A stretch of DNA of 7,802 nucleotides from Naegleria gruberi. Its lineage: Eukaryota. Positions 1,274 through 7,802 of this stretch are shown in pieces. The notes under the pieces are model-generated. The model was not told the origin of the DNA, made no database searches, and was given only the letters and a program-made list of their open reading frames with translations. The translations under genes were made by a program, and so were the position numbers. The DNA is taken from the NCBI GenBank assembly GCA_000004985.1, contig GG739105.1; one strand, written 5' to 3'. How positions within the stretch are numbered: the first letter of the stretch is position 1; every line of letters begins with the position of its first letter.

Positions 1274-1442
1274 TCAAGTTTTAGAATATTTAACAAATTT
1301 TTCTAAAACTCTACATGATTGATTCAATGTCAATAGCCTTTGAATGGAGTCTGTTTCAATAAGCTCATTCAATAATTGCTTTCTATGTTCCATATTACTT
1401 CCCATAACAATAGCATCAATAATGTACTGAGCGAATGCACTT
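1274..1442 (-). CDS. C-terminal fragment (56 codons plus stop) of a minus-strand gene whose upstream part is lost in the assembly gap. Unknown product.
   Basis: The frame is open from the gap edge to TAA at 1276..1274 and translates ...SAFAQYIIDAIVMGSNMEHRKQLLNELIETDSIQRLLTLNQSCRVLEKFVKYSKT*. The fragment is too short to classify. Confidence 0.3.
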
Positions 1443-2354
1443 NNNNNNNNNNNNNNNNNNNNNNNNNNNNNNNNNNNNNNNNNNNNNNNNNNNNNNNNNN
1501 NNNNNNNNNNNNNNNNNNNNNNNNNNNNNNNNNNNNNNNNNNNNNNNNNNNNNNNNNNNNNNNNNNNNNNNNNNNNNNNNNNNNNNNNNNNNNNNNNNNN
1601 NNNNNNNNNNNNNNNNNNNNNNNNNNNNNNNNNNNNNNNNNNNNNNNNNNNNNNNNNNNNNNNNNNNNNNNNNNNNNNNNNNNNNNNNNNNNNNNNNNNN
1701 NNNNNNNNNNNNNNNNNNNNNNNNNNNNNNNNNNNNNNNNNNNNNNNNNNNNNNNNNNNNNNNNNNNNNNNNNNNNNNNNNNNNNNNNNNNNNNNNNNNN
1801 NNNNNNNNNNNNNNNNNNNNNNNNNNNNNNNNNNNNNNNNNNNNNNNNNNNNNNNNNNNNNNNNNNNNNNNNNNNNNNNNNNNNNNNNNNNNNNNNNNNN
1901 NNNNNNNNNNNNNNNNNNNNNNNNNNNNNNNNNNNNNNNNNNNNNNNNNNNNNNNNNNNNNNNNNNNNNNNNNNNNNNNNNNNNNNNNNNNNNNNNNNNN
2001 NNNNNNNNNNNNNNNNNNNNNNNNNNNNNNNNNNNNNNNNNNNNNNNNNNNNNNNNNNNNNNNNNNNNNNNNNNNNNNNNNNNNNNNNNNNNNNNNNNNN
2101 NNNNNNNNNNNNNNNNNNNNNNNNNNNNNNNNNNNNNNNNNNNNNNNNNNNNNNNNNNNNNNNNNNNNNNNNNNNNNNNNNNNNNNNNNNNNNNNNNNNN
2201 NNNNNNNNNNNNNNNNNNNNNNNNNNNNNNNNNNNNNNNNNNNNNNNNNNNNNNNNNNNNNNNNNNNNNNNNNNNNNNNNNNNNNNNNNNNNNNNNNNNN
2301 NNNNNNNNNNNNNNNNNNNNNNNNNNNNNNNNNNNNNNNNNNNNNNNNNNNNNN
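1443..2354. other. Assembly gap (912 N).
   Basis: Uninterrupted run of n characters. The true length and content are unknown. The track ORFs 1274..2374(-), 1376..2443(+) and 1435..2364(+) exist only because N codons are read as X. Confidence 0.99.
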
Positions 2355-2758: not shown

Positions 2759-5700
2759 TTAATTGTCTTGTGTTGAATTCATAAATAGGTCTTCACAAAA
2801 GAAATCATGCATGAAATCATAATCATTTTGACCAATGGGTTCCTCATTGCATGGAAGACTATTTAAATTCCAAATATCGTCTTCCTCTAAAAAATTATCA
2901 AAAGATCCGATTGAATGTGGATTATCTTGGCTAACAATTATTGAGTTAGGTGAAGATTCAGATATTGAACTGGATGTTCTTGTTTCCTTTCTTAAACTTA
3001 TATCATCTTCAATATTAGCCTCTTGTTGAATTCGTTTCTTCCTTCCACATTTTTGTTTTGTGGAATAAACACATTCCTTATTTAAACGTTTACAATGAAT
3101 ACAAGGCTTTCCACTATTGCATCTAATTTTCAACTTAACACATGAGTCACACGAACTTCTGAATTCTGTTCCATTTAAATCAACATTCCTTTCTTTGAGT
3201 TTTGTCTGAATTCTCTTTTTAATTTTTCTTCTAACCGTATTATTCTTCTTAATTTTGTTGTTGTCTTCCTTATTGCCTTCTGAATCTGATTCATCAGCTT
3301 CAGGTGGTTCGTTCTCAATAACTATTTTTTTCCAAATATTCTTTTGAACATGGCAATATACAGAATTTTTCTTTTCTTCACTAAAATCTGACAAACTTTC
3401 AGAACATGATTTCAGTTTCTCGAAATCTTGTTTTAAAGTTGCCAATGTTGTTTGCCATTCTGAACTAATCTGCATATTAGGATTTGTTTTCAATCCGTGC
3501 CATTTCTTTTTGAACTTGGAGGACATGTATAACGTACGTGTAGGAAGCAAAATAGATTCTGCAAAGGAAGGTAAATTGAATTTACCTTTATGATTTGATT
3601 TTCTTTGACCTATCATTCTACCAAGGGAATGATATGCTTCACATCCTTGATTCATATATTTTGTTAAGCTTCCATACTTTTCCAAAAGATCCGGTAAATG
3701 ATACAAAATAATATTAATATAGTAAGCAAGTTGATCATTTGGAAAGGCTTCTCTTAAAACCTTTTTAGTGAAACTCAAATACTCTTTCAATTCTTCTTTC
3801 TTAAAATTCAAATCCAATAGCCCTTGACTGGCTTCAAGGTAATGATATATTATGAATCTAAGTGATGACCACACTTTAAAATCATTATCATTAAATTGGG
3901 TATCCGATAATGATTCCATCATAATTGATTCATAATTTAACAAAATCATATCAGCTTGATCTGCATTCATATAAGGAACTTCTAATTCAATTTTGTCATT
4001 TGTCGCTTGTAGAGCAAGTGTTGTGGCAGGTTGTTTCTTTCTAAATTGAAATTGAGACATTCCCTTCAATTTCTGAATTTTAGCTTCGAGGGATTTAATT
4101 CCTGACACTGTCATCTTAGAAATTTGAAGGGATAACAAACAGCCAACAATTCTCAATTTTGCATGAAGTATGTCAATAACTACATTGGTGAATAAATTTG
4201 GAAATTTTTGAAAATAATGAGCTGGGGGAGCAAAAGCAAAATCCTTCTCCATTCTATCATCATATACACAGGGACAATATGGACACACAAAGTTTCGTTT
4301 GATGTCAGAAATCTTCCATAATGCACTTAAATCCGTACATACGTACATTGTGCAAGGAATATCTTTTGATTGTCCTGTTTTTTCTGATTTGTATGTTATA
4401 GTCTTTAAATCATTAAAATATGTCATGGTTTTTTGAAAATAGCAGAAAACATTAGCTTTTGTTTCTTTCCCCTTATACATATCAGTAATGAATACATTGT
4501 TCCTACACTGAGTGGAAAGTTCAGAATTTAAAATTACAAAGCAACAAACAACCTCCCCTCCAGCTCTTCCATCCCAAAATAATTTCAATTCTAATTTCTC
4601 TGGTATGGAAATATCTTCGTTTTCTAACATTATAAGAGCATCATTTAAAACCAAGCCAGGATCAAGATGTATTCCATTAGAATCAGATGTGATCTTGTAT
4701 CTATCAATTATTTCCAAATCAATTTCACCTCTCCTATCAGCAAGCTCATTTACAGAAATCATTATGTTCTGTAAATTGTAAAATTTAACTATTTCATCAT
4801 ATAATCCATCTGATAATAAATTCTTATCTGTAAAATATACAGAGCTAGTGGCATCATAATTAGATAATAAATCTTTGTTTGAAATTTTCATTATTATTTC
4901 ATTAAGGTCTTTTGAATTTTGTGACCTCTCCTGCAATTTCCTAAATATTAGTTCACTATCTCTTTCAAACAAATAATCAATAAAATCATTCATTGTTTGG
5001 CCATTGGATTGTAATAATTCATCCACACCAAAATATAATCTCTCTCCATTAGCCTTTCTTGATTGAGAAGTTAATTGTGACAAATTTTTTGTTGACCTAC
5101 GGGACTTTCTAGGTTGAACAAAATTTTGCTCACAATTAGAACATACCAATCCGAAAGAAGAGCTGACATTAATTTGTTTTTTTTCTCTATCTTTTCGTAT
5201 TGGTTTATTTGTTTCTTCTGTCGAGCCTTGTTTACTAGAAGTACCAGTAATTATTGGTTTATTTGAAACCTCTACATGAATATTTCGATCTTGAATTTTT
5301 CTAATTTCTGCTTTCAACTTCTCTGTTTCTTTCTCTGCAATCACTTGTTCCAGTAATTTATTCATTAACCATTCATTAACATCACCACTAATTTCACATC
5401 CTTTTGAGGTTAAAAAATTGAAAAGGCAAACCTTATCAACTATTGTAGATTCCACATCATAAATTCTAAATCCTGATGAAACATGTTGTTGCTGTCCCCA
5501 ATAAGCCTCTCTCTTTAAATTTCTATATTTATCCCAATGACTTGGAATTGTATAAAAGGAGTTTGGTACTACTTTACTGACAACATCAAAATCACTGGCA
5601 TTGGAATATTCATATTCAATTAGTCTTATATTTTTGAATAAAAATGGCATTCCTTGTATTTTTTCTGAACCTGTATTATTGTTCAATTGATGTTCATTAT

Positions 5701-5884
5701 CCACATTTTGTTGAATTATTTCTGTACTTTTGTTTTGGTTGTAAAAACAATCTTGACATATTAAACTTGCTGCTAATTTTTTCTTTCGTAACTCTTCACT
5801 GACAAAATTTGTTTCTTGAAATATACTGTTTCCTTTGTAAACATTTACAACATGTCTTTGTTTCCATTTTTTTTTAATTTTCAA
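2759..5884 (-). CDS. EnSpm/CACTA-superfamily (Transposase_21 / Plavaka-KDZ-like) transposase core fused to a C-terminal Zn2Cys6 binuclear-cluster DNA-binding module. 5884 is the upstream limit of the open frame (TTG, not ATG). The first in-frame ATG is at 5650..5648 (Met79); an upstream exon is possible.
   Basis: A 1041-codon uninterrupted frame is very unlikely by chance in 30% GC DNA. Residues 431-440 LELKLFWDGR resemble the first-Asp block of plant CACTA TnpD (L-G-L-x-x-D-G-F-x-P-F, recalled from memory). Residues 516-537 CTDLSALWKISDIKRNFVCPYC resemble W-T-I-N-D-F-P-A-...-A-C-P-Y-C: the Asp-to-CPYC spacing is about 16, close to what I recall for the plant block. Residues 568-585 NVVIDILHAKLRIVGCLL resemble N-L-D-V-M-H-I-E-K-N-V-C-D-S-L-L-G. 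Residues 912-937 CDSCVKLKIRCNSGKPCIHCKRLNKEC match the Zn2Cys6 pattern exactly. Cys pairs upstream of the core (C43xxC46, C153..C163, C248xxC251) are compatible with KDZ-type CxC clusters. The CACTA motifs are recalled from memory, not from a search. Confidence 0.75.
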   Translation of the reverse strand: MKIKKKWKQRHVVNVYKGNSIFQETNFVSEELRKKKLAASLICQDCFYNQNKSTEIIQQNVDNEHQLNNNTGSEKIQGMPFLFKNIRLIEYEYSNASDFDVVSKVVPNSFYTIPSHWDKYRNLKREAYWGQQQHVSSGFRIYDVESTIVDKVCLFNFLTSKGCEISGDVNEWLMNKLLEQVIAEKETEKLKAEIRKIQDRNIHVEVSNKPIITGTSSKQGSTEETNKPIRKDREKKQINVSSSFGLVCSNCEQNFVQPRKSRRSTKNLSQLTSQSRKANGERLYFGVDELLQSNGQTMNDFIDYLFERDSELIFRKLQERSQNSKDLNEIIMKISNKDLLSNYDATSSVYFTDKNLLSDGLYDEIVKFYNLQNIMISVNELADRRGEIDLEIIDRYKITSDSNGIHLDPGLVLNDALIMLENEDISIPEKLELKLFWDGRAGGEVVCCFVILNSELSTQCRNNVFITDMYKGKETKANVFCYFQKTMTYFNDLKTITYKSEKTGQSKDIPCTMYVCTDLSALWKISDIKRNFVCPYCPCVYDDRMEKDFAFAPPAHYFQKFPNLFTNVVIDILHAKLRIVGCLLSLQISKMTVSGIKSLEAKIQKLKGMSQFQFRKKQPATTLALQATNDKIELEVPYMNADQADMILLNYESIMMESLSDTQFNDNDFKVWSSLRFIIYHYLEASQGLLDLNFKKEELKEYLSFTKKVLREAFPNDQLAYYINIILYHLPDLLEKYGSLTKYMNQGCEAYHSLGRMIGQRKSNHKGKFNLPSFAESILLPTRTLYMSSKFKKKWHGLKTNPNMQISSEWQTTLATLKQDFEKLKSCSESLSDFSEEKKNSVYCHVQKNIWKKIVIENEPPEADESDSEGNKEDNNKIKKNNTVRRKIKKRIQTKLKERNVDLNGTEFRSSCDSCVKLKIRCNSGKPCIHCKRLNKECVYSTKQKCGRKKRIQQEANIEDDISLRKETRTSSSISESSPNSIIVSQDNPHSIGSFDNFLEEDDIWNLNSLPCNEEPIGQNDYDFMHDFFCEDLFMNSTQDN
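3074..3151 (-). other. Zn(2)-Cys(6) fungal binuclear cluster motif (Gal4-type), residues 912-937, preceded by a basic NLS-like stretch RRKIKKRIQTKLKER and followed by a basic linker KQKCGRKKRIQQE.
   Basis: The exact spacing C-x2-C-x6-C-x5-C-x2-C-x6-C is visible in the translation. Lys/Arg residues fall at the expected positions between Cys2-Cys3 and after Cys6. Confidence 0.85.
4130..4747 (-). other. Transposase_21-like catalytic core region (about residues 380-585 of the 1041-aa frame). Candidate first Asp D438 (nt 4571..4573), second Asp D518 (nt 4331..4333), CPYC (nt 4274..4285), DxxH block (nt 4130..4177).
   Basis: I translated the motifs directly and checked them against the minus-strand nucleotides. 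The family assignment rests on established knowledge of CACTA/EnSpm TnpD conserved blocks. Confidence 0.55.
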
Positions 5885-5981
5885 AATAAATATTGATGGT
5901 CAATAATCAAGAATGAATATTCGACATTGTTCGAAAGATAATTAAATATACAAGATACCACGAGATTTGATAAATAATAAT

Positions 5982-6737
5982 TTATTTTGTTGTAAAGAAT
6001 GCACCTTCTTTCTCTCTCACCACCATCGTACAACATTCAATTTCCCAATTACAATAAACTCTGTTAGTTCTAGAATTTACAACAATTGTAAGAGTCTTAT
6101 ATTCAGCAAATTGCAATGGTTTGTTGTGAATATCTTCAACTTTGGGAAACATGTCATTTCTCCACCATCTATCACATTCGAAAGTAGGAAATCCACAGGC
6201 CAACACAAAGTGATATTTGAATAATTTAACTTGATGAGTTTCATATCCGACTGTTTGTTCATCATATACAACATCCTTTGCACATTGATAATTTCTTGTT
6301 ATTATTTTGTCAAAAATTGCATAATTCATATTTCCAAGATTCAATCCATTTCCAAACTTTACATTTCCAAATGTTAAATTATCCTTTAGTACTGTTGTAG
6401 CATCAATACAAAATTCCTTCCATTTCTTTTGTGCATAATCAATAAATTCAGTATCTGTTGTGATGCTCAATTTGTTCTTCAAGTCTTCAATTATCCTGTT
6501 ATACTCATCATCACTAATTGGGATGGCCTTGAAGGATCTGACCTTGTCAATATGTTTCTGTTCCAACTCCAACATTTTAGCCCATAATGGTTTCTTAAAC
6601 TTTTTTCCGGCCTGTGTTTTCATCTTGCTGCTTGTGTCTTTAGAAACCTTGTTGGGCTTTCTATTTAACATGAATTCTTTATAGAATGTTGGATCATAGG
6701 TGATAAAACTTGTTGTTTGCTTCAATGTTTTAGGCAT
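5982..6737 (-). CDS. Hypothetical 251-aa protein with a basic N-terminus and a Cys/His-rich C-terminal half. Possibly an accessory (TnpA-like) protein of the same element, or the 5' exon of the downstream transposase gene.
   Basis: True ATG at 6737..6735 and stop TAA at 5984..5982. The ORF is co-oriented with the transposase frame and only 97 nt upstream of it. It has a lysine-rich segment (KPNKVSKDTSSKMKTQAGKKFKKP). H168, H176, C181, C188, H204, C229, C235 and C236 could bind metal. I recognise no family. Confidence 0.55.
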   Translation of the reverse strand: MPKTLKQTTSFITYDPTFYKEFMLNRKPNKVSKDTSSKMKTQAGKKFKKPLWAKMLELEQKHIDKVRSFKAIPISDDEYNRIIEDLKNKLSITTDTEFIDYAQKKWKEFCIDATTVLKDNLTFGNVKFGNGLNLGNMNYAIFDKIITRNYQCAKDVVYDEQTVGYETHQVKLFKYHFVLACGFPTFECDRWWRNDMFPKVEDIHNKPLQFAEYKTLTIVVNSRTNRVYCNWEIECCTMVVREKEGAFFTTK

Positions 6738-6914
6738 TGTATGGTTGTGTTATTTTGTTGTGTGGTGGTGGTTTACATTGTGAAGTAAAGTCATTTTATT
6801 CTGTGATGACACTATTTTTTTGCTCCGTCCTTGCATTGTATTCAGTACTTTTGCATCTTTATTTATCAGAAACAAAAATATAAAATATTTTGCAATTACA
6901 ACAAAAACAAAACA
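6738..6914. promoter_or_regulatory. 177-bp divergent intergenic region between ATG 6737 (minus-strand gene) and ATG 6915 (plus-strand gene). Putative bidirectional promoter. TATAAAA at 6879..6885 faces the plus gene.
   Basis: The two start codons face away from each other across 177 bp. An A-rich leader (acaacaaaaacaaaacaATGG) precedes the plus ATG. On the minus strand an ACCACCACCACACAACAAAATAACACAACCATAC leader precedes ATG 6737. Confidence 0.4.
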
Positions 6915-7802
6915 ATGGATGGAGCCTTGGTTGTTTTTAAAGGCGTAGAAGAGCCACAGTTGCACAATAGTTTTGGGTTTTTAAAAGGCTTCAGGGATAC
7001 GGTAACCGTTAGCGTATTCATTCCGAAGTTAACTCCACAAGAAGCAGTGGAAAACTTTGCTGTTGTCTTCAGAGAATACAATCCTGAGAAGAAGACAATT
7101 TCATCCAAAACACAACAAACACTTCAGTATCCCTTTACAAGGTCAATCTTCTCCCCAAAAGAAGAAATAATTGATTTCGAATTTCAAGATAATTTCTGGT
7201 TTAAACGAGATGATATTCCCGATATTAAATTTTATTATGCAAAGGCAACATTCAAATTGGCAAAACTAAAATTGAAGGAAAAGAAATTCTATGATGTTTC
7301 AATCAAGTCTGGAAAAAACTATTATCACAAATATTACATAATGATGGGACGACAGGAAGAATTTTCATGGACAAATTTTGCAGAAAGTTCAACGGCTAAC
7401 AAATCTGTAACGTTCTTTTTTGAAACTTTATTGATGAAACTCGAAGATATGGCAAAAGCACAGGAGTTAACAATGATATTATATTCAAAAATGATAATGG
7501 AGAGAAATGATACACACACATTCATCGCACAAATGGTTGCTGATGGAGCAAAGATAAAGTTTGAAAATATCACAGCCAGTCATTTAGAAAAGAGCCCTCC
7601 AGATTTATTAAATCAGTTATCTGGTGACCCATTTTACTTGATAGAATATTTATTAGATAGGACAGAGTTAGGTAGCAGAAAACAGTTTATTGAAAAGGTG
7701 TTAGATACTGACAGGGACCTGTGGTCATTAGTCCCACCTGAAATTTTTGATGCTATCAAACCCTCTCAAAAATCGTTAGCTGATGCTATCAATTTTATTG
7801 GG
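6915..7802 (+). CDS. 3'-truncated gene of unknown function. 296 codons from ATG 6915 to the window edge with no stop. It is not in the supplied ORF track because it never terminates inside the window.
   Basis: I translated it manually: MDGALVVFKGVEEPQLHNSFGFLKGF...SLADAINFIG, with no stop in 888 nt of 30% GC DNA. The upstream in-frame stop TGA is at 6807..6809 and the first ATG is at 6915. A TATAAAA lies at 6879..6885, about 30 nt upstream. No Walker A, BTB, Crinkler LFLAK/HVLVVVP or other signature is recognisable. Confidence 0.7.
   Translation, partial: MDGALVVFKGVEEPQLHNSFGFLKGFRDTVTVSVFIPKLTPQEAVENFAVVFREYNPEKKTISSKTQQTLQYPFTRSIFSPKEEIIDFEFQDNFWFKRDDIPDIKFYYAKATFKLAKLKLKEKKFYDVSIKSGKNYYHKYYIMMGRQEEFSWTNFAESSTANKSVTFFFETLLMKLEDMAKAQELTMILYSKMIMERNDTHTFIAQMVADGAKIKFENITASHLEKSPPDLLNQLSGDPFYLIEYLLDRTELGSRKQFIEKVLDTDRDLWSLVPPEIFDAIKPSQKSLADAINFIG

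Follow-up and report, generated by a model that had tools for sequence, protein, structure and literature searches.

In a 7,802-nt stretch of DNA from the amoeboflagellate Naegleria gruberi (contig GG739105.1 of assembly GCA_000004985.1; by the window we mean this whole stretch), a long open reading frame (ORF) for a transposase opens directly behind a stop codon (TGA 5902..5900) and runs from position 5899 through 83 stop-free codons before reaching its first in-frame ATG at 5650..5648; all gene coordinates of the window are given on the minus strand. A second ORF, of 251 amino acids (aa), ends a short distance ahead of it on the same strand. The question raised by this locus is whether the ATG-less leader is coding and, if so, whether its beginning has to be sought in the upstream ORF, joined to it by splicing, or somewhere else. 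We consider it highly probable that the leader is the real front end of the transposase gene, with its start displaced into the adjacent frame by a 1-nt shift, that the 251-aa ORF constitutes a gene of its own, and that the window represents one copy of a two-gene DNA transposon on a 7.8-kb scaffold. Both proteins are present in the public record on one 7,802-nt N. gruberi contig: the large ORF is EFC35622/NAEGRDRAFT_76720 (P0001, 963 aa), with which it is identical from Met 5650 on, and the 251-aa ORF is identical to EFC35623/NAEGRDRAFT_76721 (P0004).

A probable start displaced into the adjacent frame

The ATG at 5650..5648 is codon 84 when counted from the stop and codon 79 when counted from the TTG at 5884. 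A run of 83 stop-free codons is expected by chance with a probability of ~8e-4 at the composition of the window (GC ~30%) and ~2e-4 at the local composition, and 18 of 100,000 shuffles of the leader were free of stops. With a chance probability of ~1e-3 to 2e-4, the stop-free leader is therefore very likely coding. The sequence-only reading of this DNA, a model's annotation that preceded the present analysis, had placed the stop and the first Met at these same positions and had taken the leader to be coding; the positions were confirmed by reading the sequence, and the second claim is borne out both by the chance estimate and by a homologous N-terminus that extends across the frame shift.

The homologues were found by a word-indexed protein search, which yielded two full-length proteins, P0003 from Naegleria lovaniensis (1131 aa) and P0002 from the Logan assembly of SRR25266765 (1232 aa), each encoded by a single uninterrupted ORF. 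Both open with a Cys4 motif, which reads MTFCSCCGKQHIS…QWCNNCY in P0003 (start MTFCSCCG) and MGKQQKKFCCCCG…KWCSECH in P0002. The window features to which the following argument refers are these.

5982..6737, minus strand: separate 251-aa accessory gene EFC35623/NAEGRDRAFT_76721, with its ATG at 6737 and its stop TAA at 5984..5982; homologues lie beside transposase genes.
5868..5981, minus strand: intergenic spacer of 114 nt from the small-gene stop to the proposed transposase start, with stops in all three frames and no GTAAGT-type donor.
5804..5867, minus strand: codons 1 to 21, METKTCCKCLQRKQYISRNKF, read in the adjacent frame from ATG 5867..5865, which is proposed as the true start; 64 nt including one putative surplus T, from alignment with the N-termini of P0002 and P0003.
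5798..5815, minus strand: interval to which the 1-nt shift is bound, with an AAATTTT run at 5810..5804 and the stop of the adjacent frame, TGA 5798..5796.
2759..5803, minus strand: transposase sequence in the main frame, beginning at the shift and closed by a TAA stop; an uninterrupted ORF, 83% of which aligns with P0002 and P0003 at 36-38% identity.
5648..5650, minus strand: ATG of the public model, the first in-frame Met; P0001 is the ORF from here.
3425..5161, minus strand: RAG1/Transib-like transposase core, 579 aa, from profile, fold model and residue conservation.
3050..3154, minus strand: C-terminal Gal4-type Zn(2)Cys(6) binuclear cluster domain, Pfam PF00172.

In the window, the Cys4 motif is divided between two frames. 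Its first half is read from ATG 5867..5865 in the frame adjacent to the main one (frame A) as METKTCCKC…NKF, followed by CQ and then by TGA 5798..5796; its second half, …VSEELRKKKLAASLICQDCF… (EELRKKK…ICQDCF), lies in the main frame. The KQYIS of frame A is the counterpart of KQHIS in P0003, and homology supports this frame through ISR (to 5816); the EELR of the main frame is the counterpart of EQFR and NEFR in the homologues, and the main frame is supported from 5797 on. The shift must therefore fall within the 18 nt from 5815 to 5798. After correction by one base, M1, C7, C9, R27, K30, C37 and C40 are invariant among the window protein, P0002 and P0003, and the distance from CxC to CxxC amounts to 28 residues in the window as compared with 29 and 30 in the homologues. 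Because no residues are missing from the spacing between the cysteines, an intron cannot be the cause of the shift. The corrected protein has 1035 aa, and the 1014 codons beyond the shift are free of stops.

In its simplest form, the surplus base within 5815..5798 would be an extra T in the run 5807..5804. Such a base would place ATG 5867..5865, and with it codons 1 to 21, in the frame next to the main one, so that the main frame would appear to lack an ATG for 83 codons; the displacement of the start by the 1-nt shift would also be the reason why the public model starts at Met 5650. The surplus base may be a genuine mutation that inactivates the gene, or it may be an error of base calling.

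The 251-aa gene as a separate accessory gene

Homologues of the 251-aa protein, detected at 35-41% identity and tblastn E values of 1e-34 to 1e-41, adjoin the transposase gene at three N. lovaniensis loci (L001, L003 and L004) and on a Logan contig (L002), where they are located downstream of the transposase gene and on the opposite strand (13543-14403 in L001 and 8118-8990 in L002). A second element family, with a transposase ~22% identical to that of the window, likewise carries a small gene, of 238-246 aa, which is convergent with the transposase gene and lies 46-276 nt downstream of it in L005, L007, L008 and L009; the small protein of the window matches that of the second family with hhalign E = 1.3e-6 (probability 90.6%), and the small gene of L009 gave an hmmsearch match of 3e-39. 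The convergent, opposite-strand arrangement thus recurs in five other elements of two families (loci L001, L002, L003, L004, L005, L007, L008 and L009). Since the small gene lies on the opposite strand in the relatives, it cannot be a 5' exon, and this comparison shows the 251-aa ORF to be a gene apart from the transposase gene, an accessory gene of the element that has a start and a stop of its own.

As to whether the small module always accompanies the transposase module, a point raised by the sequence-only reading, the two genes are neighbours in several elements, on opposite strands, and a search next to the Planoprotostelium relative found no homologue of the small gene. In Willaertia magna, a 213-aa ORF is located 54 nt upstream of the transposase gene and on the same strand, which is the layout of the window; comparison of this ORF with the small protein by hhalign did not demonstrate homology (E = 0.028, probability 1.8%).

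With respect to the nature of the small protein, there was no significant match in Pfam, the TnpA families included. The structural model, built from 7 sequences, has a predicted local distance difference test score (pLDDT) of 66.8 overall and 80-93 in the core and consists of helices followed by an antiparallel sheet; comparison of the model with known folds yielded no informative match and no RAG2-like fold. Given that the gene pair persists across two families that share only ~22% transposase identity, we regard the small protein as a putative transposition cofactor.

The small gene of N. lovaniensis contains a GTAAGT…CAG intron (14217-14279, 63 nt, in L001; 62 nt in L003 and L004), whose site is uninterrupted in the homologues from N. 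gruberi and Logan. A possible second, convergent copy of the small gene near the assembly gap of the window, indicated by a 28-aa tblastx match at 1357..1440, proved spurious: tblastn with three small proteins found nothing there.

The large protein and its RAG1/Transib-like core

In the large protein, of ~1035 aa, a DDE transposase core of RAG1/Transib-like type lies between the N-terminal Cys4 motif and a C-terminal DNA-binding domain of the Zn2Cys6 class. The last of these is the only domain that Pfam recognizes in the window protein (PF00172, E = 6.6e-7; 29.8 bits, the curated cut-off being 21; aa 916-950 in the frame of 1046 aa). Its matches among the sequences of the Protein Data Bank (PDB) are LAC9, GAL4 and PUT3; it is kept in the three closest homologues only, P0002 and P0003 included, and is absent from the second family.

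An exhaustive profile search recovered 195 relatives, including proteins from Naegleria, Willaertia and Planoprotostelium; the conservation data and the RAG1 profile described here are based on an alignment of 51 relatives. In this alignment, D277, C293 and H333 are invariant, and D197, E233, C296, R337, Y481, H483, H488 and E508 are conserved in at least 90% of the sequences. The DDE triad of the RNase-H-like core is present in the window protein (D197, D277 and E508), as are the zinc-site residues C293, C296 and H488. Position 483, presumably equivalent to the zinc ligand H937 of RAG1, is Asn in the N. gruberi copy and His in at least 90% of the family. A partial second copy in N. gruberi (P0005, described below) carries the same Asn. 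The key residues of the core map to the window as follows.

Minus strand: D197, 4573..4571; D277, 4333..4331; C293/C296, 4285..4274; N483, 3715..3713; H488, 3700..3698; E508, 3640..3638.

Searched against PDB sequences, the profile of 51 relatives matched zebrafish RAG1 (3jbw, E = 5.6e-12), mouse RAG1 (~1e-8) and amphioxus BbRAG1L (6b40, 3.6e-8). The RAG1 match comprises three colinear stretches, namely PR..RR…L..LT, in the nonamer-binding region; the second Asp followed by CxxC; and Y-x-H-x4-H-x19-E, the spacing of which we take to be identical to that of H937, H942 and E962 in RAG1. In the HMMER alignment, D277 is paired with a residue of the RAG1 stretch GYDEK and E508 with one of the stretch GNES, and D197 is probably equivalent to D600 of RAG1. 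The Pfam RAG1 family (PF12940) was matched by 9 of the 51 relatives, with a best E of 1.9e-7, and Transposase_21, the family of CACTA TnpD, by none of them at E <= 1 and not by the window protein either.

Structural comparison points in the same direction. The AlphaFold2 model of the 579-aa core has a pLDDT of 88.7 and a predicted template-modelling score (pTM) of 0.82, and in a Foldseek search of the PDB all 49 matches at E <= 1e-3 were RAG1, BbRAG1L or HzTransib, the next match having E = 0.74. The likeness of fold extends over ~580 residues, with template-modelling (TM) scores of 0.53-0.61 and E values down to 3.4e-12.

We file the large protein as RAG1/Transib-like within the broad CACTA-Transib clade rather than as a proven Transib, the comparison of folds having covered the structures of the PDB. 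The reason for this caution is that C(2)C and H(3-4)H motifs are common to the transposases of CACTA, Mirage, Chapaev, Transib, Plavaka and ESTA (Kojima, 2025, PMC12730594) and that other divergent lineages of the CACTA/EnSpm-Mirage-Chapaev-Transib (CMCT) clade also reach RAG1 by profile methods (PMC12730594). Transposition would be expected to occur by cut-and-paste through the hairpin mechanism of RAG1 and Transib.

Two distant relatives of the transposase, P0019 and P0040, have a C-terminal Ulp1 protease domain (Peptidase_C48). Captured domains such as the Ulp1 protease are known from other DNA transposons.

Copies, ends and mobility

The relatives in N. lovaniensis fall into two families, both of which contain a transposase gene and a small gene and have ends of the form 5'-CAAT…ATTG-3'. 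In family 1, a 6.96-kb unit is present twice at 98.9% identity (L001 7851-14808 and L003 7851-14797), along with an internally deleted copy in L004; these three copies are 95-99% identical and have unrelated flanks and sharp ends. The ends form an imperfect inverted repeat of ~21 bp, CAATTGGGGAGGCGGACAATT… and …AATTGTCCTGCCTCTGCATTG (also given as CAATTGGGGAGGCGGACAATT and CAATGCAGAGGCAGGACAATT). Family 2 is represented by three copies of a 3.73-kb unit with a perfect 12-bp inverted repeat, CAATACAACCAC. These data show that the related N. lovaniensis elements are mobile, and the 95-99% identity of the copies suggests that the element may be active.

The hexamer CTCAAC is found 4-6 nt outside the left end at 7653 in all three family-2 insertions (L005, L007 and L008), and may represent either a target preference or a variable outer end. 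In L001, the left end is separated from the start of the transposase gene by a 2.15-kb region devoid of long ORFs, which includes a palindromic stretch of ~79 bp (9666-9744). In L004, positions 20514-21314, at a distance of ~7 kb from the deleted copy, contain a gene with OrfB_IS605 and Cas12f-like TNB domains (TnpB/Fanzor-like).

In N. gruberi itself, the second copy is partial: P0005 (EFC38786, 519 aa, on a 290-kb scaffold) shows 100% protein identity to the window protein over ~337 aa, beginning with MEKDFAF and ending with KIKKNNT, behind which there follows an unrelated tail of acidic character. Either part of an element has been fused to a different predicted gene in this model, or the assembly has duplicated the sequence. 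N. gruberi also has a paralogue, P0159. No significant similarity connects the flanks of the window with those in N. lovaniensis. An assembly gap of 912 Ns occupies 1443..2354, ~400 nt downstream of the transposase stop, and the downstream end of the element could be hidden inside it.

Weighing the readings

Several observations weigh against the view of the window as a transposon copy whose transposase gene has a displaced start. The N. gruberi protein alone, and likewise a 3-sequence profile, matched PDB sequences in the Zn2Cys6 domain only, with no significant match to RAG1; the link to RAG1 emerged from the 51-sequence profile and the structure model. The small gene of the window is located upstream and on the same strand, a rearranged layout unlike that of most of its homologues. 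In the window, a repeat search, a search with the N. lovaniensis end motif and a flank-versus-flank search produced no convincing inverted ends, so that the mobility of this particular copy is putative; the best inverted pair, which joins 90-107 and 6851-6868 over 18 nt at 83%, does not exceed what chance would give. The start at 5867 is likewise putative and the extra base a candidate, both being proposed from homology. Finally, inspection by eye of five complete junction pairs in N. lovaniensis, with shifted boundaries and swapped flanks included, found no target-site duplication of 1-8 bp. The pairs were as follows.

L001, 7851/14808
L003, 7851/14797
L005, 7653/11386
L007, 7653/11343
L008, 7653/9912

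Among the alternatives, the one that fares best, and to which we give an even chance, accepts the shift as genuine: the window would then hold a decaying or N-terminally truncated copy, in which any translation would begin at Met 5650 and the leader would be a recent coding relic. Decay is favoured by the Asn that replaces the zinc-ligand His at position 483 of the core, by the presence in N. gruberi of just one full and one partial copy, and by the failure to find inverted ends in the window. However, the rest of the frame remains stop-free over 1014 codons in DNA of 30% GC, the complete protein identity of the partial copy indicates a very recent duplication rather than long decay, and the small, gapped scaffold (Ns at 1443..2354) makes a base-calling error plausible.

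That the gene pair is a domesticated host locus of N. gruberi rather than a mobile element appears quite unlikely. The low copy number in this species and the lack of detected inverted ends in the window are compatible with domestication, but the close relatives in N. lovaniensis are multicopy, are set in unrelated flanks, end in inverted repeats and include deletion derivatives; between the flanks of the window and those in N. lovaniensis there is no significant similarity; and the gene itself is frame-shifted and lacks one of the zinc ligands.

A further possibility is that the sequence is correct and that the ribosome undergoes programmed +1 frameshifting at the frame-A stop, where CAG would be read, the U of UGA skipped and GAA GAG read next. 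Frameshifting of this kind is known from antizyme and Euplotes genes. The stop at 5798..5796 is situated exactly at the junction, and skipping its T gives …NKFCQ-EELRKKK…, a product of equal length that is compatible with the alignment. Nevertheless, we assign this mechanism a very small probability: its prior is low, the homologues are single ORFs without a shift at this place, and no stimulatory element has been observed, none having been sought.

There remains the proposal from which the question arose, in which the 251-aa ORF would serve as exon 1 and be joined by splicing to the transposase frame, for a product of ~1.27 k aa. What the sequence-only reading had said about the arrangement of the ORFs is correct: the 251-aa ORF (6737..5982) is co-oriented with the transposase frame and ends 97 nt ahead of TTG 5884. 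Measured to ATG 5867, the distance is 114 nt. The dinucleotides of the proposed sites also exist in compatible phase (for the phase-1 splice, 6004->5832, the donor gaag/GTGCAT at 6004 and the AG before 5832; for the phase-0 alternative, 6020->5791, a donor near 6020 and an acceptor near 5791), but the significance attached to them does not stand, since they are 2 of 50 in-frame GT..AG combinations that are available by chance in this AT-rich stretch. None of these is GTAAGT-like, and the GTAAGT…CAG intron of the Naegleria homologue (62-63 nt) resembles none of the sites proposed in the window. Either splice would, moreover, delete the conserved CxC half of the Cys4 motif, encoded at 5855..5841. 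The tail of the small protein past the proposed donor is kept to the stop (EGAFFTTK in the window as compared with GRWTKTT and EGMWVLTS in homologues). Together with small genes on the opposite strand in five other elements and with homologous transposase genes that are intronless and open with the Cys4 motif, these facts refute the fusion in both its phase-1 and its phase-0 form and make the exon reading scarcely credible.

Relation to known systems

The element described here shares with RAG1, BbRAG1L and Transib (PF12940; 4WWX, 3JBW, 6B40 and 6PQN) the same core fold and colinear sequence matches, but departs from them in several respects. The ends of the N. lovaniensis relatives are 5'-CAAT…ATTG-3' and not CAC…GTG; the core is extended by a Gal4-type Zn2Cys6 domain and by a Cys4 motif at the N-terminus; the host belongs to the heterolobosean amoeboflagellates; and a 5-bp duplication of the target site is missing at the five N. 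lovaniensis junction pairs, which is unexpected because the transposase is of the RAG1/Transib type. RAG-like (RAGL) elements similarly consist of a transposase gene tightly linked to a second gene, usually in convergent orientation (PMC7204232). The partner in the present case, however, is an alpha+beta protein of 210-290 aa and not the Kelch-propeller RAG2.

With the CMCT clade, which includes ESTA and Plavaka, the elements have in common termini of the form 5'-CA…TG-3', and three of the transposase relatives weakly match DUF1280, a Caenorhabditis protein family. In contrast to the clade, there is no target-site duplication of 2-5 bp. In contrast to CACTA/EnSpm, the termini start with CAAT, no 3-bp duplication is seen, Transposase_21 is not found in the 51 relatives and the second protein is not TnpA-like. 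The fallback offered by the sequence-only reading, two separate genes in the CACTA manner, accordingly holds insofar as the 251-aa ORF would be a second element gene, whereas the likeness to a TnpA/TnpD pair is only loose, with neither Transposase_21 nor a TnpA match detected.

The C-terminal domain of 35 residues matches PF00172 and the solved DNA-binding domains of fungal Gal4, Lac9 and Put3, and UniProt names the N. lovaniensis homologue after the Zn2Cys6 domain. Compared with fungal Zn(2)Cys(6) factors, this domain makes up only a minor part, attached to a transposase of 1000 aa that lacks the fungal middle homology region, and the organism is not a fungus.

Implications

To our knowledge, few RAG1-like transposases have been described from organisms other than animals; such enzymes have a bearing on the origin of the V(D)J recombinase. 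In the literature searched, we found no report of a Transib- or RAG1-like element in Naegleria, and the element family appears to be undescribed. RAG-like transposons have been reported from a unicellular (pelagophyte) alga, and Transib-like proteins from bacteria, fungi and plants (Tao et al., 2022, PMC9435367); given the report from the alga, a RAG1-like element in a protist is not unprecedented. As far as we can tell, there is no precedent for the partner gene, for a Zn2Cys6 domain fused to such a transposase, for ends that start with CAAT or for the lack of a duplication.

On the level of annotation, the public model EFC35622 would start 78-84 codons too late because of the 1-nt shift, EFC35623 is a gene in its own right and the apparent two-exon gene is not real. 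The annotation problem itself is ordinary. Three features of the system seem to us worth study, namely the amoeboflagellate host, the linked non-RAG2 partner that is maintained across two families and the absence of a target-site duplication. Tentatively, and with the balance slightly against us, we propose that the heterolobosean lineage comprising Naegleria, the relative sampled in Logan and perhaps Willaertia possesses an obligate two-protein RAG1/Transib-like system that employs a partner other than RAG2 and integrates without target-site duplication. If this proposal is true, the recruitment of a dedicated cofactor by a RAG1-type transposase would have happened twice, independently, and these elements would provide a natural comparison for the question of why RAG1-type enzymes acquire partner subunits.

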